The notes under the pieces: generated by a model
What the model saw: only the letters and a program-made list of their open reading frames with translations
Told to the model about the DNA's origin: nothing
The model's database searches: none
Virus record (IMG/VR): IMGVR_UViG_3300045988_032262
Length of the DNA: 34,146 nucleotides
Reading direction: 5' to 3' (one strand)
DNA from: a virus
Made by a program: the position numbers and the translations under genes
Shown: positions 13,689 through 30,789 of the stretch, piece by piece
How the letters are laid out: each line of letters starts with the position of its first letter
Position numbering within the stretch: the stretch's first letter is position 1

Positions 13689-14534
13689 ATGAGCGTACCA
13701 CAATCTATTGTAAATTGGTTTGTTAACCATCGAGGCAAATTGACCTATTCAATGTATGGGTCACGCAACGGAGCAGACGGTACAGCTGACTGCTCTGGTT
13801 CGATTTCGCAAGCCTTAAAAGAAGCTGGTATTGGTATTCAAGGACTACCATCAACAGTAACCCTTGGTCAACAACTTGCCAAAAATGGATTCTATCGAGT
13901 AAGTATTAATCAAGATTGGGATGCTTTGACAGGTGATATTGTGTTAATGTCATGGGGTGCTGATATGTCCACATCTGGCGGAGCTGGAGGGCACGTTGGT
14001 GTCATGATGGATAGTGTAAACTTCATTAGTTGTGATTATTCAACTCAAGGAGCACCAGGAAAAGCCATCAATACTTACCCGTGGAATGACTACTATGCAG
14101 CGAACAAGCCTTCCTATATCGAGGTTTGGCGTTATTCTGATTCAGCACCACAGACGAATAACCAAGCAAATACAGCAGTAGCACCACAACAAAAGGCTTA
14201 CTATGAAGCTAATGAAGTCAAATATGTTAACGGTATTTTCCAAATTAAATGTGATTATTTATGTCCAATCGGGTTTAATTATTTTCAAAACGGAATCCCT
14301 GTGGCAATGGTTAACTGGGTTGATAAAGATGGTAATGACTTGCCTGACGGTGCTGACCAAGAATTCAAGGCAGGCATGTTCTTTAGTTTTGCCGGTGATG
14401 AAAACAACATTACAGACACAGGAGAAGGCGGCTATTATGGTGGCTATTACTACCGACGTTTCGAGTTTGGTCAGTTTGGTACGGTTTGGCTTTCTTGTTG
14501 GAATAAAGATGATTTGGTAAACTATTACCAATAG
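13689..14534 (+). CDS. Endolysin: N-terminal Amidase_5/CHAP-like domain plus a C-terminal cell-wall-binding domain
   Basis: The N-terminus, KLTYSMYGSRNGADGTADCSGSISQALKEAG...GHVGV, is typical of streptococcal phage lysins. The C-terminus is Y/G/W-rich. The reading frame is uninterrupted. Confidence 0.9.
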   Translation: MSVPQSIVNWFVNHRGKLTYSMYGSRNGADGTADCSGSISQALKEAGIGIQGLPSTVTLGQQLAKNGFYRVSINQDWDALTGDIVLMSWGADMSTSGGAGGHVGVMMDSVNFISCDYSTQGAPGKAINTYPWNDYYAANKPSYIEVWRYSDSAPQTNNQANTAVAPQQKAYYEANEVKYVNGIFQIKCDYLCPIGFNYFQNGIPVAMVNWVDKDGNDLPDGADQEFKAGMFFSFAGDENNITDTGEGGYYGGYYYRRFEFGQFGTVWLSCWNKDDLVNYYQ

Positions 14535-14720: not shown

Positions 14721-14752
14721 CCCTGACTTGAATTAGTCAGGGTTTTTGTTTT
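14721..14752 (+). terminator. Second rho-independent terminator
   Basis: Stem ccctgact (14721..14728) pairs with agtcaggg (14735..14742). Loop is tgaatt, followed by tttttgtttt. Confidence 0.65.
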
Positions 14753-14931
14753 GCAAAAAAAATATATATTTTTTTATAAAAACAGTTTCCGTCTGGTCAC
14801 CAAAATAGACTAGAATGGATTGAGAGCAACTTGGAAAACATTCGATAAAAAATAAAAAAACGAGGTAAAAACAATGGATACATACAAAGAACAATATATA
14901 GTATGTTTTACTAATTTTCAAGATGTTTAAT

Positions 14932-14975
14932 AAAAAAATCAAGAAAACTTGAAAAAAAATCAAGAAAACTGTTGA
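14932..14975 (+). promoter_or_regulatory. Two 18-bp direct repeats (AAAAAAATCAAGAAAACT) containing the palindrome TCAAGAAAACTTGA; putative operators
   Basis: The repeats are at 14932..14949 and 14953..14970, a 21-bp period. The palindrome is at 14939..14952. A second, partial copy, TCAAGAAAACTGTTGA (14960..14975), overlaps the -35 box. Confidence 0.5.
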
Positions 14976-15000
14976 CATTGAATTTTGTTTAAGCTATAAT
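14972..15000 (+). promoter_or_regulatory. Consensus sigma-A early promoter
   Basis: TTGACA (14972..14977), a 17-nt spacer, then TATAAT (14995..15000). It lies 34 nt upstream of the cro-like gene, which has an AGGAAGGAGG RBS. Confidence 0.75.
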
Positions 15001-24465: not shown

Positions 24466-24600
24466 TGGTTCGAATCCACTATGAGTTGTTAGTCTGTCGT
24501 GACTAGGTAACTTTTTCGACACTCGTATCGCTGACAGACCGATACACAAACCCAGTAAATATTTTATAGAAATGAGGATCCAATACATACTTTTTTTACT

Positions 24601-24630
24601 CCAGTCTTGCATTGCTGGTAGCAAGACTGG
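24601..24630 (+). other. Perfect 10-bp-stem hairpin (ccagtcttgc / gcaagactgg) in a non-coding region
   Basis: Arms at 24601..24610 and 24621..24630 with a 10-nt loop. It is followed by aatttaaaat, a weak U-tract, so its role as a terminator is uncertain. Confidence 0.4.
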
Positions 24631-24732
24631 AATTTAAAATAAAGGGGGTGGTAAATAAAAAAAAGCCCAAGGCAAAGCTTGCCGAGAACTATTTGACAAC
24701 ATTATTATACCATGAAAAAGGAAAGACAATTT

Positions 24733-25131
24733 ATGAGAACAGTTGAGCGGTTACAAAGAATCAAAGCACTTGATAGATACATCGACAGTCAGATAGAGCA
24801 AATTAAGAGACTGGAATCACAAGCACTTAAAGTGACATCTGGTTCAATGCATACTGACATGGTTCAGGGTGGAAAGCGTAAGGGCAAAGATGATATTTAT
24901 GTGGAACTTATAACGGCTAAGGAAGAATTAGAACGCTTCACAGCTGAAGCTATCAAACAGAAGCTAGAGTTTCGTAGACAGATAGCAAATATTGAGGATA
25001 TAGATGCTAGGTCTTTGCTTCAAATGGTATACATTGACCAACTTGGTATCTGGCAGATATGTGACAAGTTAGGGATTAGTAGAGCTACGTACTACGTTAA
25101 ACTAAGACAAGCTGAGAAACATCTAGATTAA
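24733..25131 (+). CDS. Putative late-gene transcriptional activator with a sigma-70 region-4-like C-terminal HTH (DUF1492/ArpU/RinA-type position)
   Basis: ATG at 24733 lies 7 nt after AAAAAGGAAAG; the ORF track gives 24712. C-terminus: IWQICDKLGISRATYYVKLRQAEKHL. It is the last early gene before the packaging module. Confidence 0.5.
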   Translation: MRTVERLQRIKALDRYIDSQIEQIKRLESQALKVTSGSMHTDMVQGGKRKGKDDIYVELITAKEELERFTAEAIKQKLEFRRQIANIEDIDARSLLQMVYIDQLGIWQICDKLGISRATYYVKLRQAEKHLD

Positions 25132-25190
25132 TCTATACCAATTAATACGGCATAATACTTTAGGCGTGGTAATATAGTATTATCGAATCA

Positions 25191-25222
25191 GAAGGACACA
25201 TCAGTGTTCTTCTTTTATTTTA
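25191..25222 (+). terminator. Rho-independent terminator
   Basis: Stem gaaggacac (25191..25199) pairs with gtgttcttc (25204..25212) with one G-U pair. Loop is atca, followed by ttttatttta. Confidence 0.65.
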
Positions 25223-25240
25223 TCTAAAGGAGGCATGCCA

Positions 25241-25750
25241 ATGCCAATGGTCAGACGATGCAAGGCAGACGGATGCCGCACTTTAGTAGAGAGACCAGCA
25301 CACTACTGTACTGCACATAAAGACATGGAAGCACAAGAGAGACAGAGATACTCACGCACTAGATACAACACACGAGTGAGGAACCGAGACGATGAGACTA
25401 AAGAGCGCTATGCATTCTATCGGTCAAGGGTTTGGTCTTCTATTCGGAAGGTAGCTTTGGAACGTGACAACTATCTGTGTCAGTACTGCTTGGCTTTGGG
25501 TGTGACCACACCAGACGCACGTATAGGTGACCACGTCACACCTGTTGAGATAGCACCAGAACTTAAAACTGACGTATCTAACATCGTGGCGACTTGTAGA
25601 AGTTGTGACAACACGAAGAGGACTCTAGAACAAGAAATCTATGGTACTGGTCAAAATAGAACCAAGCAAAACACTGACCTACGACTTTCCGTGGCAGCGT
25701 GGGCGGGTTTAATAGCCCGTAAAAAGGCGGACGTCGTTAAACCCCTCTAA
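25241..25750 (+). CDS. HNH endonuclease associated with the packaging module
   Basis: Motifs: CQYC...GDHVTPVE...N...CRSCDNTKR. There are three in-frame ATGs (25235, 25241, 25247). The one at 25241 has the best spacing, 7 nt, from AAAGGAGG (25226..25233). It lies directly upstream of cos/terS, as in HNH-dependent cos phages. Confidence 0.85.
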   Translation: MPMVRRCKADGCRTLVERPAHYCTAHKDMEAQERQRYSRTRYNTRVRNRDDETKERYAFYRSRVWSSIRKVALERDNYLCQYCLALGVTTPDARIGDHVTPVEIAPELKTDVSNIVATCRSCDNTKRTLEQEIYGTGQNRTKQNTDLRLSVAAWAGLIARKKADVVKPL

Positions 25751-25930
25751 AACGCCCGTAGCGCGATTTTAAATAAGGGGTGGTATGTTTACCCTATATG
25801 ATGTCTAAAATTGACCCCCGCCCCCTATATCGAGCCTAGGAGAGCCACGACAAGGTGTCTTCTCTTGTCACGCGCAACTTTTGAGGATTTTTAAAGGGTG
25901 TCTATACCAAACGGAGAGGAGTAATGATGA
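25751..25930. other. Candidate cos region / terminase recognition region
   Basis: A non-coding segment between HNH and terS. It has a locally GC-rich core, GACCCCCGCCCCC (25813..25825). CCCTATAT occurs twice (25792..25799 and 25823..25830), as does GGTGTCT (25854..25860 and 25897..25903). There is a hairpin gacaag/cttgtc (25849..25869). The exact cleavage site cannot be determined from sequence. Confidence 0.45.
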
Positions 25931-26392
25931 GTGGTTAAGAATCCGTATTATCAGCAGAACAATGGGCGGTTACCAAGCGACCCTCCGAATTATTTAGGAA
26001 CAGTGGCAAGGGAAGTTTGGCGCAAAATCATTCCGTTTTTAGAAAACACAAATAAAATTCAACGCATTGATACGTTCTTGGTTGAAACTTACTGTACGAA
26101 TTATGAAATTTACAAGCTTGCTTATGAAGATATAAAAGAGAATGGTATTCAGCAAGAAATCAGGAAGCCTATCCAAGCGCAAGGCAGTGGTGAAATTCTC
26201 GGTGAGCAATCGCTTGGTTTTAAAAAGAATCCAGCAGTCGCCACAATGAAAGACGCCGTTGACACCTTGAATAGAATTGGTGTTCAGCTTGGTTTGACCC
26301 CTAAGGGACGTGCGGAATTGCTAACAATTGCAGGAAGCACCAAGCCTGAAAAGTCAACAACTGAAATGATGAAAGAATTTTTGAACAGTTAA
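25931..26392 (+). CDS. terS: Terminase small subunit (P27-family-like, 153 aa)
   Basis: GTG at 25931 lies 9 nt after GGAGAGGAG. Its size and position between HNH and terL fit. The C-terminus, LGLTPKGRAEL, is typical of P27-type small terminases (from recall). Confidence 0.75.
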   Translation: MVKNPYYQQNNGRLPSDPPNYLGTVAREVWRKIIPFLENTNKIQRIDTFLVETYCTNYEIYKLAYEDIKENGIQQEIRKPIQAQGSGEILGEQSLGFKKNPAVATMKDAVDTLNRIGVQLGLTPKGRAELLTIAGSTKPEKSTTEMMKEFLNS

Positions 26393-26409
26393 AAAAAGAG
26401 GTGAGGTTT

Positions 26410-26550
26410 TTATTTCCCCATCTCTTTTAGTTGTTTTTCGATAGCTTTTTGAACTATCTTAGCTTGCGGTATCATTGTTTCTTCTGATGTCTCTTTTAGT
26501 TTATCCAACAGCTCTTCATCAAGCGTGAACGTCATACGTTTTTTTGCCAT
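26410..26550 (-). CDS. Ribbon-helix-helix (CopG/Arc-like) DNA-binding protein (46 aa), absent from the ORF track
   Basis: Minus-strand ATG at 26550..26548 lies 5 nt after GGAGG. Translation: MAKKRMTFTLDEELLDKLKETSEETMIPQAKIVQKAIEKQLKEMGK*. The pattern is the classic beta strand (RMTFTLD), helix, helix. Confidence 0.7.
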   Translation of the reverse strand: MAKKRMTFTLDEELLDKLKETSEETMIPQAKIVQKAIEKQLKEMGK

Positions 26551-26570
26551 GTCAACCTCCTTTTTTTAAT

Positions 26571-26615
26571 ATAATACAATAAAAGTATTGCATTGTAAAG
26601 AGGATATGTTATAAT
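26571..26615. promoter_or_regulatory. Back-to-back divergent promoters
   Basis: Plus strand: TTGCAT (26588..26593), a 16-nt spacer, then TGTTATAAT, an extended -10 (26607..26615). Minus strand: TTTACA (complement of 26594..26599), a 17-nt spacer, then TATTAT (complement of 26571..26576). Confidence 0.55.
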
Positions 26616-26664
26616 TACATTGTAAAGTTAAGTAAATACAATATAATATAATGAAAGGGCAAAA

Positions 26665-27573
26665 ATGACAAGTGGCATTAGAAGAACCAGCGAAATGTTT
26701 TTAAGCGAAATATATGATAAATATGGTTCGGAATATACTGTATTGAGCGAATATAAAAAAGCTCACGAAAAAGTTTTAGTTAGGCACGAGAAGTGCGGTT
26801 GCGAGTGGGAGATAGAAGCTAATAGTTTACTAAGAAAAGCTCGTTGTCCAATGTGCAACGGCGGTGTTTCTTTTAGTGAAAGCGAGTTTAAAAGAAGACT
26901 TTTTAAAAAGTACGGTGATGGTTATATCTTGATTGATAGATATACCAATGCTCGTAAAAAAGTTACGTTTTTATGTAACAAATGTCGCTATTGTTTTAAT
27001 ATGACCCCAGATAATATATTAAGAGGGCATGGTTGCCCTCGTTGTTTCAGGAGTAGAATTTCAGAGCGGTATTCCAAGAGTGACAAAGATTTCAAAAATG
27101 AGGTAAAAAATCTTGTTGGAAATGAGTATATATTTTTAGATAAATATTCTACAGGAAGAAAGAAAATGAGGTGCAAGCATGTTAGATGTGGAAATGTTTA
27201 CATGGTTACACCAAACAATTTTTTGAGCGGTAAACGTTGTCCGTTTTGTAAATCTAGTCGTGGTGAAGCAGAAGTTAGAATGTACTTATTGGAAAAAGGT
27301 GTATTTTTCGAGGAGCAGGTCAGATTTGATGATTGCCGATACAAAAAGCCTTTACCTTTTGATTTTTATTTGCCAACAATGAACACGTTAATTGAGTTCG
27401 ATGGCGAACAACACTTCCAACCTATTGAACATTGGGGCGGAGAAAGGAGCTTCTTAGAAATACAAAAGAGAGATAAAATAAAAACTGATTTTTGTTTATC
27501 TAACAACATAAAACTCATTCGTATCAGCTATATGGATGATGTAAAGGAGGTGCTTGAAAATCAGATTGAATAA
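26665..27573 (+). CDS. Putative free-standing homing-type endonuclease: three Zn-ribbon repeats plus a C-terminal Vsr/DUF559-like PD-(D/E)XK nuclease domain (302 aa)
   Basis: GAAAGGG RBS. There are three roughly 60-aa repeats, each with the pattern F...YG.EY.hL..Y.....K...C..C......P...L....CP.C. C-terminus: GEAEVRMYL...LPFDFYLP..NTLIEFDGEQHF...QKRDKIK...IKLIRISY. Its 3' end overlaps the terL start and contains the terL RBS. Confidence 0.7.
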   Translation: MTSGIRRTSEMFLSEIYDKYGSEYTVLSEYKKAHEKVLVRHEKCGCEWEIEANSLLRKARCPMCNGGVSFSESEFKRRLFKKYGDGYILIDRYTNARKKVTFLCNKCRYCFNMTPDNILRGHGCPRCFRSRISERYSKSDKDFKNEVKNLVGNEYIFLDKYSTGRKKMRCKHVRCGNVYMVTPNNFLSGKRCPFCKSSRGEAEVRMYLLEKGVFFEEQVRFDDCRYKKPLPFDFYLPTMNTLIEFDGEQHFQPIEHWGGERSFLEIQKRDKIKTDFCLSNNIKLIRISYMDDVKEVLENQIE

Positions 27574-29428
27574 CTCACATGATGTTATCAGTGCTTATAA
27601 AAACGCTGATTTTTCATTTATCCGCAAGAAATATCAAGATCCAGGTACTAAATACGCTTTTTCCGTGCTAGACGGCGATGTTATCGCTGGCTATTATATC
27701 AAGTTAGCTTGTTATAGGCATTTACGAGACTTGCAAAGGCAAGGAGACAACGATTTCCCATTCATCTACTCGTTGACTGAATTTAACAAGTTTTTGAAAT
27801 TTGTTAGGCTTGTTCCTAACGTGGATAACCTCAACGAGAAGTTAGAATTAATGGATTGGCAATATTTTATCTTCAGCCAAATGTTCGGCTGGTTTGGTCT
27901 TGACGGATTGCCAAGGTTTACTAATATCGTCTTGTCGATGGCACGTAGTCAGGGGAAAACAATGATAGCTGGGATTTCCATGAACTACTCTTTTCTCATT
28001 GAGACTATTGGGCTATCCAATCAGGACTACCTTATTAGTTCGCTAAACCACGACCAAACCATGAAGCTATATACTTATGTTAAGTCGATGATGGCTAAAA
28101 TTGTGGAGAATGAGCCGTTCAAGTCTTTGGCGGAAGAGATGGGGTTGAAACTTTATTCGAGAGAGATCAAAGCTCTAACTGATAGCAATTCTATTTGGAC
28201 TATCAGTTTTGAAAGTGGGAAATTTGACTCAAAACACTTTCGTCTTGCTGTTGCTGATGAGGTAGGCGAGTTAAGGAATGACGAGGGGATTTCTAAAATC
28301 ACCTCAGGGCAGGTAAACACAGACGGTTCACGTTTCATTGAAATCTCTACCGCATATACAGTGCCAAATGTTCCTTTTCACCAAGAACAGAAAAAGCTGA
28401 TTGAAATTATGGAAAATGACGATGACAGAGCTGGAGATGACCAACTCTGTTTAATTTGGTGTCAAGATGACTTAGAAGAAACTTTCGAGCCAGAAACCTG
28501 GGCTAAAAGCAATCCACTTTTAAATCACCCAGAATTAAAAGACAGCCTTATGAAAGGCTTACTTTCTGAACGTGATAAGAAAATGCTTATGGGTAAGCTA
28601 GCAGATTTCCAAGTTAAAAACATGAATTGTTGGCTACTTGCTGACAGTAATAGTTTTCTTGACTTAAAAGATATTGAGAATGCAGTCATTGATGATTTTG
28701 ATATACGTGGCAGGCGTGTGTACGTTGGGCTTGACGCGTCAATGTTTAGTGATAACACAGCAATCGGGTTTGTATATCCGTATTTAGGTGAAGACGGGAG
28801 CCAAAAGTGGCATATAGAACAGCATAGCTTTATCCCTTGGCAACAAGCAGGAAGCATTGAAGCCAAAGAGAAGCAAGACGGGGTCAATTATCGAGACTTG
28901 GAAGCCAAGGGTTTTTGTACGATTACAAGCCATCCGCAAGGGCTTATCAATCCAGAGGAAGTTTACCGCTGGTTTATTGATTATGTTGAAGACAACGCGC
29001 TTGATGTCGTTTTCTTCGGCTATGACGCTATGGGAATGTCTAAGATTATCAAAGCATTGGAATCTAATACAAGTTTCCCACTCATGCCAATCAGACAGCG
29101 TACAAGTGAATTGAAAGACCCTACAAAATTCCTACAAACACTGTTCATTGAGGGTAATATCACTCGACTAGATGATGAAATAATGCGAAAAGCCTTGATA
29201 AATGCAGTTATTAAAGAGGACAACATCGGTATTCAAGTAGATAAAATGAAATCCACTTACAAGATTGACGTGGTGGATGCTCTTGTTGATGCTTTTTACG
29301 ATGGCATGTATGCGTTTGAGGACTATGCAATAACCAATAATCCAACATGGAAAGTCGAACATATGAGCCAAGAGGCAGTTTTAGCATGGCTAAAAAACCC
29401 AGAAAGTGGGCTATTAGAGGAGTATTAA
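27554..29428 (+). CDS. terL: Terminase large subunit (624 aa)
   Basis: TTG start lies 4 nt after AAAGGAGG (27542..27549). Walker A-like MARSQGKT and Walker B-like LAVADEVGE are present, with a C-terminal nuclease region. It sits upstream of the portal gene. Confidence 0.9.
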   Translation: MKIRLNNSHDVISAYKNADFSFIRKKYQDPGTKYAFSVLDGDVIAGYYIKLACYRHLRDLQRQGDNDFPFIYSLTEFNKFLKFVRLVPNVDNLNEKLELMDWQYFIFSQMFGWFGLDGLPRFTNIVLSMARSQGKTMIAGISMNYSFLIETIGLSNQDYLISSLNHDQTMKLYTYVKSMMAKIVENEPFKSLAEEMGLKLYSREIKALTDSNSIWTISFESGKFDSKHFRLAVADEVGELRNDEGISKITSGQVNTDGSRFIEISTAYTVPNVPFHQEQKKLIEIMENDDDRAGDDQLCLIWCQDDLEETFEPETWAKSNPLLNHPELKDSLMKGLLSERDKKMLMGKLADFQVKNMNCWLLADSNSFLDLKDIENAVIDDFDIRGRRVYVGLDASMFSDNTAIGFVYPYLGEDGSQKWHIEQHSFIPWQQAGSIEAKEKQDGVNYRDLEAKGFCTITSHPQGLINPEEVYRWFIDYVEDNALDVVFFGYDAMGMSKIIKALESNTSFPLMPIRQRTSELKDPTKFLQTLFIEGNITRLDDEIMRKALINAVIKEDNIGIQVDKMKSTYKIDVVDALVDAFYDGMYAFEDYAITNNPTWKVEHMSQEAVLAWLKNPESGLLEEY

Positions 29429-29431
29429 TAT

Positions 29432-29611
29432 ATGATTTTGAAGTTTTTTAAGGCAATTTGGGCTATTTTCGACATTTTAATGTTCATTTTAGCTGCAATT
29501 TCACTTAATATAACCACTTACCACCTTGGCTATGTATGGTTTGGCATTAGCATGACAATCACGTTCATACTAGCAGGGTTGGTTAGTGAACTAGCCGCCA
29601 AAAAAGGCTAG
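29432..29611 (+). CDS. Small two-TM membrane protein (59 aa), absent from the ORF track
   Basis: AGAGGAG lies 9 nt upstream. Translation: MILKFFKAIWAIFDILMFILAAISLNITTYHLGYVWFGISMTITFILAGLVSELAAKKG*. Confidence 0.55.
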   Translation: MILKFFKAIWAIFDILMFILAAISLNITTYHLGYVWFGISMTITFILAGLVSELAAKKG

Positions 29612-29628
29612 AAAGGAGGTGATAACAA

Positions 29629-30789
29629 TTGCCAATATTTAATATAACGAATCTTGCAACAGAGAGTCCACCTAGTAATCAAGGTGTCTTTTTTGATATT
29701 ACTGATCCAGAGTTTTTAGCTACTATTCAGGGTAGTGAGTGGGTATCAGCTGAAACTGCTCTCAGAAACTCAGACTTATTTTCTATTATTAATCAACTCT
29801 CAAACGACCTTGCAACCGTTAAACTGACAGCCAGTCGGAAACAATTACAGGGAATCATTGATAACCCGTCAAACAATGCTAACCGCTTTAATTTCTATCA
29901 ATCTATCTTTGCTCAAATGCTACTTGGTGGGGAAGCCTTTGCTTATCGATGGCGAAATGAAAATGGGCGGGATATGAAGTGGGAATATTTGCGACCGTCT
30001 CAAGTATCATTCAATCGCTTGGATAATAAAGATGGAATTTACTATAACATCACTTTTGACGACCCACGCATTCCACCAAAACAGCACGTCCCACAAGGTG
30101 ACGTCTTACACTTTAAATTGCTATCTGTGGATGGTGGTTTGACAAGTGTAAGCCCGTTGATGGCTCTTAGTAGGGAGTTGAATATACAGAAAGCCAGCGA
30201 TAAGCTGACGCTTAACTCTCTCAAAAACGCCTTAAATGCCAATGGTATTTTGAAGATTAAAGGCGGTGGCTTGCTTGATTTTAAAACTAAACTCTCACGC
30301 TCACGGCAAGCGATGAAGCAAATGCAAGGCGGTCCGTTAGTGCTGGATGATTTAGAGGACTTCACACCGCTTGAAATTAAGTCGAACGTGTCTCAACTGC
30401 TTAAGCAAGCGGACTGGACAACTGGACAGTTTGCTAAGGTCTACGGTATCCCAGAGAATGTAGTTGGAGGTCAAGGAGACCAACAATCATCGCTGGAAAT
30501 GAGTTTAGATCTCTATAACAAAGCAGTCTCACGCTATCTAAGACCGTTTATTAGTGAATTATCTCAAAAACTATCCTGCGATGTGGATGCAGATATTTTG
30601 CCGGCTGTTGACCCTACTGGCTCTAATAGTGTCAGTCGGATTAATAGCATGGTTAAAAGTGGCACACTCGCACAGAATCAAGGCTTGTATATTTTGCAAC
30701 AAGCTGAAATTTTACCTAAAGAGTTGCCAGAAGGGGAAAACCCTAATAAGACCACATTGAAAGGAGGTGAGATAAATGGGGAAGATTGA
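29629..30789 (+). CDS. Portal protein (HK97-type, 386 aa)
   Basis: TTG start after AAAGGAGGTG. Its position between terL and the prohead protease, and its size, fit a portal. Confidence 0.85.
   Translation: MPIFNITNLATESPPSNQGVFFDITDPEFLATIQGSEWVSAETALRNSDLFSIINQLSNDLATVKLTASRKQLQGIIDNPSNNANRFNFYQSIFAQMLLGGEAFAYRWRNENGRDMKWEYLRPSQVSFNRLDNKDGIYYNITFDDPRIPPKQHVPQGDVLHFKLLSVDGGLTSVSPLMALSRELNIQKASDKLTLNSLKNALNANGILKIKGGGLLDFKTKLSRSRQAMKQMQGGPLVLDDLEDFTPLEIKSNVSQLLKQADWTTGQFAKVYGIPENVVGGQGDQQSSLEMSLDLYNKAVSRYLRPFISELSQKLSCDVDADILPAVDPTGSNSVSRINSMVKSGTLAQNQGLYILQQAEILPKELPEGENPNKTTLKGGEINGED

Follow-up and report, generated by a model that had tools for sequence, protein, structure and literature searches.

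The stretch of DNA considered here is the IMG/VR virus record IMGVR_UViG_3300045988_032262, which with its 34,146 nucleotides (the window in the following) represents the genome, permuted and nearly complete, of a Streptococcus thermophilus phage of the cos type (Aliceevansviridae, Moineauvirus), with about 99% identity to P7151 and phage 53. Between the small terminase gene terS and its partner terL it carries a cassette of two divergent genes, one for a 302 amino acids nuclease and one for a ribbon-helix-helix (RHH) protein of 46 amino acids. This unit had been described in an earlier note made from the sequence alone, and all the parts listed there were found to be present. The cassette is probably a mobile, free-standing gene of the homing endonuclease type which is accompanied by its own dedicated transcriptional autorepressor.

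Homing endonuclease genes (HEGs) are a major force in the mosaicism of phage genomes, and how the free-standing ones are restrained is little understood. The controls known for them are host or phage promoters, RNA structure, and repression by the enzyme itself. In the literature no described homing endonuclease was found with a separate, divergently transcribed repressor. The pairing of RHH protein and nuclease is the unusual part of the cassette; taken as a whole the cassette is a common selfish element in a regulated version and not a system of a new kind. The arrangement apparently arose with RHH proteins of two unrelated families and is seen again in an unrelated phage, and it would be a simple portable control circuit. 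It occurs in lytic S. thermophilus phages with many sequenced relatives with or without the cassette, which makes it tractable, and it matters for the evolution and typing of dairy phages since the cassette takes with it the 5' kilobase of the essential gene terL, the translation start of which it has rewired.

Insertion between terS and terL

The cassette is bordered on its left by terS (25931-26392, plus strand; Terminase_4 1e-21, phrog_83 3e-42) and on its right by terL (27554 or 27566 to 29428, plus strand), which has TerL_ATPase and TerL_nuclease domains. Phages P7151, 53, P7573, P7154, P8922, and P9854 are 96-99.4% identical to positions 25845-28800 of the window. Relatives with an empty site, for which the earlier note had proposed to look, were found in SW21, SWK5, SW6, SWK1, P7132, and D4276, and filled sites in about 19 phages. 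In SW21 and SWK5 the homology to the window ends at position 26406 and resumes at 27581, with 34 nucleotides in place of 26407-27580; in the likewise cassette-free SW6, SWK1, P7132, and D4276 the terS-terL distance is 21-40 nucleotides. With the SW21-type empty site as reference the insert ranges from 26407 to about 27553 and measures about 1.15 kb, the earlier note having given 1.16 kb. It is flanked by an imperfect direct repeat resembling a Shine-Dalgarno (SD) sequence (AAAGAGGTG at 26395-26403 and AAAGGAGGTG at 27543-27552), and its GC content (31-36%) is below that of the flanks (38-47%). Presence or absence at a single site among close relatives, with clean junctions, is the pattern of a free-standing HEG. 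The nuclease family was found in 40 Streptococcus records as compared to 213 which match the HNH-terS-terL module (about 19%), both counts including GenBank/RefSeq duplicates. As the cassette is missing from most relatives, a core packaging gene was rejected, and the pair is not the universally present one which the earlier note had named as the alternative outcome. Empty sites, sporadic distribution, and clean junctions support the view that the cassette is a self-contained insertion. A search of 24500-30000 against Rfam at E <= 1 yielded zero RNA families, so that the cassette and its surroundings hold neither an intron nor a riboswitch. The available literature on these phages, on S. thermophilus homing endonucleases or terminase, and on RHH proteins with free-standing homing endonucleases yielded no account of this cassette.

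Cassette type, terL 5' allele, and a 10-nucleotide terL insert, which is dealt with below, were classified on a sample of Moineauvirus genomes. At least four nuclease types and two unrelated RHH families were seen, each RHH family having its own operator-like repeats. Sister cassettes at the same spot encode a 378 amino acids nuclease in SW2, P7601, D1024, CHPC873, CHPC1005, 140, and P3681, and one of 310-329 amino acids in SW5, P7631, P7632, VA460, and Javan288. The SW2-type cassette is a clean insertion when compared to SW6, the terL allele being shared at 93% identity, and the P7601 cassette has its insertion point a few nucleotides away in the same spacer. The left junction of SW2 has a terS tail of the window type and a relic of the SD sequence, yet the site is of the SW6 type, so that flanking DNA came along with the cassette. 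With at least three distinct junctions the terS-terL spacer is an insertion hotspot. In the S. salivarius prophage YMC-2011 (locus L003, 4462-5599) the cassette nuclease is split into open reading frames (ORFs) of 292 and 63 amino acids, and the RHH gene and the control region are intact beside it; the breakage fits the decay of a selfish gene after fixation.

Another finding was that the cassette is transferred together with its surroundings. One block (26326 or 26375 to 28596) comprises the final codons of terS, the whole cassette, and the 5' portion of terL; its identity is at least 99.5% among phages with backbones of only 80-88% identity. In mismatch maps made with P9854, P7573, and P7154 about 12 differences fall inside this block, and directly outside of it the identity drops to 78-91%. 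In these maps the left end is thus 26326 or 26375 and the right end 28596. In P7151, where the block covers 26306-29205, both ends are different, which makes three left and two right ends in total. On the left the block includes the final 20-65 nucleotides or so of terS. On the right it includes the first 1.04 kb or so of terL (to 28596), a divergent allele seen only together with the window-type cassette. Over 827 bp the 5' part of terL is at least 99% identical in 11 records (six phages, all with cassette) and at most 72% identical in all other phages, the best outside match being an S. gallolyticus prophage. Six further IMG/VR and metagenome contigs were found by an exact 29-mer of this allele, and all six carry the cassette, so that allele and cassette go together in 12 of 12 cases. 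Parts of the portal-capsid region show 100% identity between the window and the cassette-free phages SW21 and SW6; for the initial kilobase of terL the values are 66% and about 50%, respectively, and the terS end of SW21 is 73% identical. From the identity of the block and the exclusive linkage of the allele it follows that the cassette moves together with about 1 kb of a terL allele of foreign origin. This inheritance together with the flanks, and a distribution which does not follow the phage backbone, are compatible with homing and not specific to it. The cassette lies at the left edge of the exchanged tract, which matches the published pattern that nuclease genes sit at boundaries of genetic exchange and cluster beside terminase genes (PMC10448857). 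Such a tract is what homing with asymmetric co-conversion would produce, and ordinary recombination could produce it as well.

The position of the cassette also bears on a different explanation, which is regarded as unlikely. The nuclease may have been domesticated and have ceased to home; it would then assist packaging or the processing of cos, or be used, like ICP1 Odn, to fight competitors, resident prophages, or satellites, with the RHH protein setting the timing. The gene is located inside the packaging module beside cos and is physically linked to the translation of terL. HEG-like nucleases may be co-opted where they lie near terminase genes, of which the HK97 HNH protein is a case (PMC10448857), CapR itself is a domesticated HEG domain (PMC8096241), and the cassette is abundant in public data, where the cluster of P0001 comprises 256 member sequences. 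Most close relatives, however, package their DNA without the cassette, and a conserved packaging HNH gene (25235-25750) is kept in all of them, the cassette-free ones included. The broken nuclease of YMC-2011 fits a selfish gene in decay, and PADLOC had zero matches for either cassette protein at E <= 1.

The nuclease

The 302 amino acids protein (26665-27573, plus strand; phrog_559 4e-96) is built from three zinc (Zn) modules and a C-terminal domain of the Vsr/DUF559 type, as had been read from the sequence in the earlier note. Pfam, an AF2 model of the whole protein (pLDDT 87.9), and matches to the fold of 1vsr/1cw0 and to DUF559/DUF2726 bear this out. The Zn modules occupy residues 8-66 (26686-26862), 71-129 (26875-27051), and 139-197 (27079-27255), all on the plus strand. 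Each has about 60 amino acids with H/C-x2-C...C-x2-C ligands which are invariant or nearly so in 40 aligned homologues, the conserved ligands being C44, C61, C64, C107, C124, C127, H172, C175, C192, and C195. Pfam matches them with DUF4379 'treble clef' (6e-9) and CapR (9.5e-7), and with its three modules the protein has the tandem Zn fingers of CapR/DUF723/DUF4379 HEGs. Within the nuclease family the number of modules ranges from three to at least five. Zn fingers of the CapR type have been found by experiment to be DNA-binding modules of phage HEGs, and mutants of their cysteines lose binding (PMC8096241). When the window is compared to SW2, the Zn array is replaced and the control region and catalytic domain are homologous (25229-26646 and 27258-27495); similar domain swapping is described for T5orf172 HEGs (PMC10448857).

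The Vsr-like PD-(D/E)XK domain (27256-27570, plus strand) contains the residues E201, D233, E244, D246, H250, D270, and K273. Since flexibility between the domains of the full-length model blurs a whole-chain Foldseek search against PDB, the C-terminal 113 residues were modelled by themselves (pLDDT 92.5, pTM 0.83). The best matches of this domain model in PDB are the Vsr structures 1vsr and 1cw0, with a probability of 0.99, a TMq of 0.50-0.56, and weak E-values (7e-3 to 5e-2), followed by PvuRts1I, AbaSI, TnsA, and the endonuclease domains of RAP and R2. In 16 family members Pfam found DUF2726 in twelve and DUF559 in four, and also DUF5889 and DUF7255. The residues G200, E201, D233, E244, G247, Q249, H250, D270, and K273, which are invariant in the family, are all contained in the window protein; E201, D233, E244, H250, D270, and K273 are invariant or at least 90% conserved across the family. 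As all these residues are present, a lack of catalytic residues, which the earlier note had seen as a possible objection, does not apply. In a weak hhalign alignment to Vsr, E201 corresponds to Vsr E25, D233 to D51, and D246 to H64, and its manual extension brings H250 to H69 and D270 to D97. The model thus supports a Vsr-type fold with a complete set of family-invariant residues. Comparison of the nuclease with PDB chains, as a single sequence and with a profile of the C-terminal part, gave nothing meaningful, and NCBIfam gave no family for the cassette proteins. The label 'HNH endonuclease' of phrog_559 was rejected, as there is no HNH motif or Pfam match for it and the true HNH protein is encoded by the separate gene at 25235-25750.

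At E <= 1e-3 the nuclease has 1869 homologues. With tblastn the family was detected in 467 phage records, with up to 11 copies in one genome; the hosts are Staphylococcus (197 records), Enterococcus (40), Streptococcus (40), Bacillus (37), Lactococcus (21), and others. Family members often occur in multiple copies per genome and between structural genes, and for three which were sampled the genes on either side code for tail, baseplate, or sheath proteins and none for an RHH protein. BFVD contains 320 structural relatives, part of them from giant viruses, with names such as homing endonuclease, group I intron protein, DUF2726, DUF559, and restriction enzyme. The family is already known, commonly annotated as homing endonuclease or group I intron protein, and not new. 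Since it is widespread and carries such annotations in many phages, the cassette nuclease is a member of a known homing-type family which is biochemically uncharacterised.

Among the systems described, the T5orf172 Zn-finger HEGs of the ICP1/T5-like kind have a repeated Zn-finger array fused to a nuclease as well (Barth, Dunham & Seed 2023, PMC10448857; Netter et al. 2021, PMC8096241). They also share with the cassette the location between essential genes near terminase, the position at the edge of a recombination tract, and the swapping of domains. Unlike their T5orf172/GIY-YIG domain, for which Pfam gave no match in the 302 amino acids protein, the nuclease domain of the cassette is of the Vsr-like PD-(D/E)XK type, and the cassette has a divergent RHH partner, whereas none is described for the HEGs in these two papers. 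The EDxHD enzyme I-Bth0305I (Taylor et al. 2011, PMC3239194) shares a C-terminal Vsr-like domain and N-terminal modular DNA-binding repeats. The cassette nuclease resembles this family in having acidic and histidine residues at the positions of Vsr E25, D51, H69, and D97, which make up the composite E-D-x-H-D, and in being borne by phages, free-standing EDxHD members included. A Klebsiella phage gene which bears the annotation 'homing endonuclease EDxHD' has DNA similarity to the catalytic region. In contrast to I-Bth0305I, which is intron-encoded and has NUMOD/HTH modules, the cassette nuclease is not intron-encoded and has Zn fingers. It was not filed in the EDxHD family because homology to I-Bth0305I could not be demonstrated and the DNA-binding modules differ.

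The free-standing HEGs SegG and MobE of phage T4 cause co-conversion, and in the same phage MobA forms part of the MobA/gene 60 cassette. To these the window cassette is alike in that the nuclease gene lies beside a presumed essential target, in the inheritance as a block, and in an immunity which would be conferred by a difference in the neighbouring gene. The T4 enzymes, which are cited in PMC12724721 and PMC5009743, are in contrast of the GIY-YIG or HNH types and have no separate repressor, and cleavage and target of the cassette nuclease are proposed ones.

The RHH partner and the control region

The putative repressor is encoded on the minus strand (26410-26550) and matches RHH_3 (3e-14) and the 'Arc-like repressor' phrog_3180 (1.3e-21), in agreement with what the earlier note had said of it; 'Arc-like repressor' is also its name in RefSeq. 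The RHH_3 match spans residues 3-43 of 46 with no extra tail. Its gene has a strong SD sequence, GGAGG (complement of 26556-26560), 5 nucleotides ahead of the ATG. The earlier note had regarded it as the only convincing minus-strand gene, and in the annotation of P7151 one of 47 coding sequences (CDS) is indeed on the minus strand; an ORF of 81 amino acids at 14733-14978 of the window (minus strand), however, matches phrog_25718 (3.5e-47), a family to which phrog assigns no function. This ORF lies in an AT-rich low-complexity spacer after the lysis genes, where P7151 has no annotated gene, and may belong to a family of miscalled ORFs or be a second real minus-strand gene.

Between the two cassette genes there is a divergent control region of 114 bp (26551-26664), which was described by a consensus scan, by repeats, and by conservation. 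A candidate promoter of the RHH gene on the minus strand has a -35 box TTTACA (complement of 26594-26599), a 17-nucleotide spacer, and a -10 box TATTAT (complement of 26571-26576). For the nuclease gene a distal candidate, TTGCAT (26588-26593) with a 16-nucleotide spacer and the extended -10 box TGTTATAAT (26607-26615), and a proximal one, TTGTAA (26620-26625) with a 16-nucleotide spacer and TATAAT (26642-26647), are found on the plus strand. The exact 10-mer CATTGTAAAG occurs at 26591-26600 and 26618-26627, 27 bp apart, and overlaps the -35 boxes of the RHH and nuclease-side promoters; these are its only two copies in the 34 kb. Inverted copies of TACAAT at 26575 and 26637 flank the CATTGTAAAG repeats. 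The region has 10 matches to the promoter consensus as compared to 6.1 +/- 2.4 in shuffled sequences. The back-to-back promoters embedded in repeats, as the earlier note had put it, are thus only consensus matches; they are conserved in four cassette variants (the window, SW2, YMC-2011, and P7601).

The cassettes of these four phages have in common an identical or near-identical RHH protein and the 114 bp control region. The RHH protein is 100% identical in SW2 and 96% identical in YMC-2011 at the amino acid level, beside different nucleases. In SW5 and P7631 an unrelated protein of 43 amino acids (DUF6364 8.9e-10, RHH_1 0.0018) is encoded at the same position and in the same orientation. The intergenic region is different there and has a perfect 14 bp palindrome, CACGTATATACGTG, abutting the -10 box TATAAT. 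The type of RHH protein hence co-varies with the type of repeat among the cassettes.

A tblastn search with the 46 amino acids protein returned near-identical copies only, the query being too short. In a survey of 80 IMG/VR loci with a nuclease of the family an RHH-like ORF was found nearby in five, two of them confirmed divergent pairs, so that most family members have no RHH neighbour and the earlier note was right in calling a divergent repressor beside a HEG unusual. The two confirmed pairs are on a streptococcal contig (L028) and on an unrelated contig (L035). On the latter a divergent RHH_3 gene (5.3e-12) and a five-module nuclease adjoin holin and endolysin genes, and the spacer between RHH and nuclease genes contains four copies of the TTGTAAA type. 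At two other loci, L094 (2086-3331) and L099 (2250-3511), a co-oriented ORF of 47-57 amino acids overlaps the start of the nuclease gene. The one of L094 matches a model built from the cassette RHH proteins (E 3.7e-4); the small ORFs of L099 are RHH-like by eye and not confirmed by Pfam, a second RHH-like ORF being located there on the opposite strand. With the same model an RHH-like ORF was found about 1.1 kb upstream of the nuclease gene in L095. The layout of L094 and L099 resembles an antitoxin-toxin or C-protein operon and is unlike the divergent one of the window.

This layout leads to the question whether the two genes form a toxin-antitoxin or addiction pair, in which the RHH protein neutralises the nuclease directly, or its loss unleashes it; such a pair would keep the cassette in place or shut out superinfecting phages. 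Antitoxins are often RHH proteins, weak matches to CopG-antitoxin and RelB-like proteins were found, and an RHH-like ORF directly upstream of the nuclease gene, co-oriented with it and overlapping its start as in the two unrelated viral contigs L094 and L099, is the classic arrangement. In the window, however, the genes are divergent and form no operon, and the RHH protein is a bare domain of 46 amino acids with no toxin-binding tail, which makes a classical antitoxin role unlikely. In addition, the same RHH protein is found beside nucleases which are only about 38% identical overall, most nucleases of the family have no partner, and the L099 ORFs were not confirmed as RHH. The reading as a type II pair was rejected for this locus on account of the divergent orientation and the minimal RHH domain, and toxin-antitoxin or addiction function in general is considered improbable.

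Equally slim is the chance that the RHH protein is a regulator of the phage late or packaging operon, for instance one which gates terL from an internal promoter, and became the neighbour of the nuclease by accident in a recombination hotspot. For this would speak that terL is directly downstream of the promoters presumably controlled by RHH, that a terminator-like hairpin parts terS from the cassette, and that the terS-terL spacer takes up insertions at three or more junctions. On the other hand no phage was found with the RHH gene alone or this nuclease alone at the site, two unrelated RHH families are present at the same position relative to the nuclease, the pair recurs outside a packaging context in L035, and cassette-free phages express terL without such a regulator.

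A functional link between RHH protein and nuclease is argued for by a pairing which is rare but recurrent and by the co-variation of RHH type and repeats. Most simply, the RHH protein would repress the shared control region, and the repeats may be its operators. In this respect the cassette is like Arc, Mnt, and CopG, where a minimal RHH protein of about 45 amino acids is likewise found beside a promoter region with short repeated or palindromic elements; the differences are that the partner gene is one of a homing-type nuclease and that DNA binding is putative. I-TevI, which is discussed in PMC10448857, represses its own gene itself, and the C proteins of restriction-modification systems are HTH activators and repressors which are co-transcribed with the nuclease and paired with a methylase. 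In both cases, as is proposed for the cassette, a small DNA-binding function at the promoter of a site-specific nuclease, which could damage its own carrier, limits the expression of this nuclease; the cassette differs by having a separate divergent RHH gene and no methylase. I-TevI autorepression and the C-protein controllers would be its nearest functional analogues.

Taken as a homing endonuclease gene with its own repressor, the cassette could work as follows. The 302 amino acids protein would recognise a long DNA site by its three tandem Zn-finger modules, and the Vsr-like domain would cut this site in relatives without cassette, at the terS-terL junction or in the 5' part of terL. Repair from a co-infecting cassette genome would then copy the cassette together with flanking DNA, and such copying of flanks would explain the constant linkage to a divergent, presumably uncuttable terL 5' allele. 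The RHH protein would be made from a promoter back to back with those of the nuclease, bind to the CATTGTAAAG/TACAAT elements over the -35 boxes, and repress the nuclease promoters as well as its own gene. In this way the host-type promoters of the cassette would yield nuclease in a short pulse or at a low level only, and nuclease would otherwise come from read-through of late transcription. A more specific version is a self-timed homing unit in which the RHH protein allows a brief pulse of nuclease upon entry, and nuclease, repressor, and terL 5' segment form a 'homing island' with terL as the immunity determinant; this version is speculative and has a low chance of being correct.

Several points weigh against the reading as a mobile gene of the homing type with its own repressor. 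Cleavage, its target, homing, repression, and timing are what we infer. Genomes of Moineauvirus are mosaic throughout, so that the block may have been transferred by ordinary homologous recombination and not driven by the nuclease. The window-type cassette has no isogenic empty site and is always linked to its own divergent terL 5' allele, which makes a target inside terL, or a cargo relationship, as likely as a target at the junction. This allele is an old foreign lineage and looks like a module swap, not a locally mutated immunity allele. The six window-type phages are too alike for a selection test on the nuclease. The promoters and operators are matches to consensus and repeats in AT-rich DNA, and TTGTAAA is not enriched genome-wide. 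A kinship in sequence to I-Bth0305I (3R3P), the single Vsr-like homing enzyme which is characterised, was not detected, with no profile match in PDB and no place in the top 50 fold matches. The earlier note had thought of a regulated selfish module, with cleavage of the terS-terL junction in co-infecting relatives (marker exclusion) as one possibility. Insertion, architecture, and RHH pairing speak for such a module, which is the best supported reading and likely, though partly inferential, to be right; the junction cleavage, marker exclusion, and repression belonging to it are the inferential part.

Junctions, terL expression, and the packaging module

At the left junction AAAAGAGGTGAGG (26394-26406), a relic of the terL SD sequence of the empty site, pairs with the 3' end of the RHH gene (26416-26428) to form a hairpin (26394-26428). 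It has -13.0 kcal/mol on the plus strand (z -3.0) and -11.8 kcal/mol on the minus strand (z -3.1), and runs of U follow on both strands. It could hence serve as a terminator in both directions, as terS and the RHH gene converge on it. At the right junction the initiation region of terL (27543-27568, plus strand) lies within the nuclease ORF, with the SD sequence AAAGGAGG (27543-27550) and TTG starts at 27554 and 27566. The nuclease stop codon (27571-27573) is located 3' of both. The annotated start of terL corresponds to 27566 in P7151 and to 27554 in P9854, P7573, and P7154. The overlap of 20 nucleotides given in the earlier note thus applies to the TTG at 27554 and is 8 nucleotides with the one at 27566; the SD sequence lies inside the nuclease ORF either way. 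From the positions of these signals the insert took over the translation initiation of terL, with the old SD sequence in the left hairpin and the new one, together with the start, inside the end of the nuclease ORF.

In SW21-type empty sites (locus L008, 1259-1300) the sequence for the conserved N-terminus of TerL offers only ATA, GTT, and ATT codons, as ATG, GTG, and TTG are all missing from the frame 3' of the upstream stop; the annotated start 80 codons downstream would cut off conserved sequence. Starts of terL are apparently non-canonical or weak in this phage group, the window using TTG.

In many Moineauvirus phages, DT1 included, terL is annotated as two CDS. Loci with such a split terL are L006 (SW6, 2210-2260), L007, L002, L004, L010, L009, and L003 (YMC-2011), and intact comparators are L101 (P7132, 1745-1790) and L102 (D4276). 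The intact terL of P7132 reads TTT CAT TTT ACA ACG GCT ATT TTT GAT GAA. In the SW6 type an insert of 10 nucleotides is present just before Walker B, TTT CAT TTT ACT TGA ATG A ACA ACG, with identical surrounding bases, and YMC-2011 has an insert of 5 nucleotides at the same codon (ACT TG ACC AAT). The Thr codon ahead of TGA has a counterpart, likewise for Thr, 7 nucleotides (SW6 type) or 2 nucleotides (YMC-2011) downstream, and when the two are joined the intact protein is recovered exactly. The arrangement suggests a short, programmed translational bypass of the kind known from T4 gene 60. A parallel is the translational bypassing in terL genes of Streptomyces phages (PMC10732093), and no account of a bypass-type insert in terL of the phages considered here was found in the literature. 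The terL gene of the window is intact and has no insert of this type. The sister cassettes of SW2, P7601, and SW5 lie about 0.7 kb upstream of the 10-nucleotide insert, which would need translational bypass, and together with it would be a miniature parallel to the MobA/gene 60 cassette of T4. The link of cassette and insert is loose: VA460 has a cassette and an intact terL (171-nucleotide span), and many phages with the insert, such as SW6, SWK1, and DT1, are without cassette.

The local gene order of the window is DUF1492 late regulator (24712-25131), packaging HNH upstream of the cos region, cos region, terS, two-gene cassette, terL, and portal. At a distance from this module, the annotation of P7151 (locus L020, 22355-23459) splits the endolysin in two, about 270 nucleotides apart, at the position at which group I introns are known in lysin genes of S. 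thermophilus phages. The window has one ORF of 281 amino acids at the corresponding place (13689-14534) and therefore appears to be without this intervening sequence. Within the packaging module P7151, P7573, and P7154 have about 200-480 additional bases between cos and terS, at window position 25901/25902, so that the spacer beside cos is variable in length. A small annotated ORF is located inside the spacer insert of P7151 and P7132, and a 66-nucleotide element (window 25730-25795) is repeated at 77-79% identity within these inserts.

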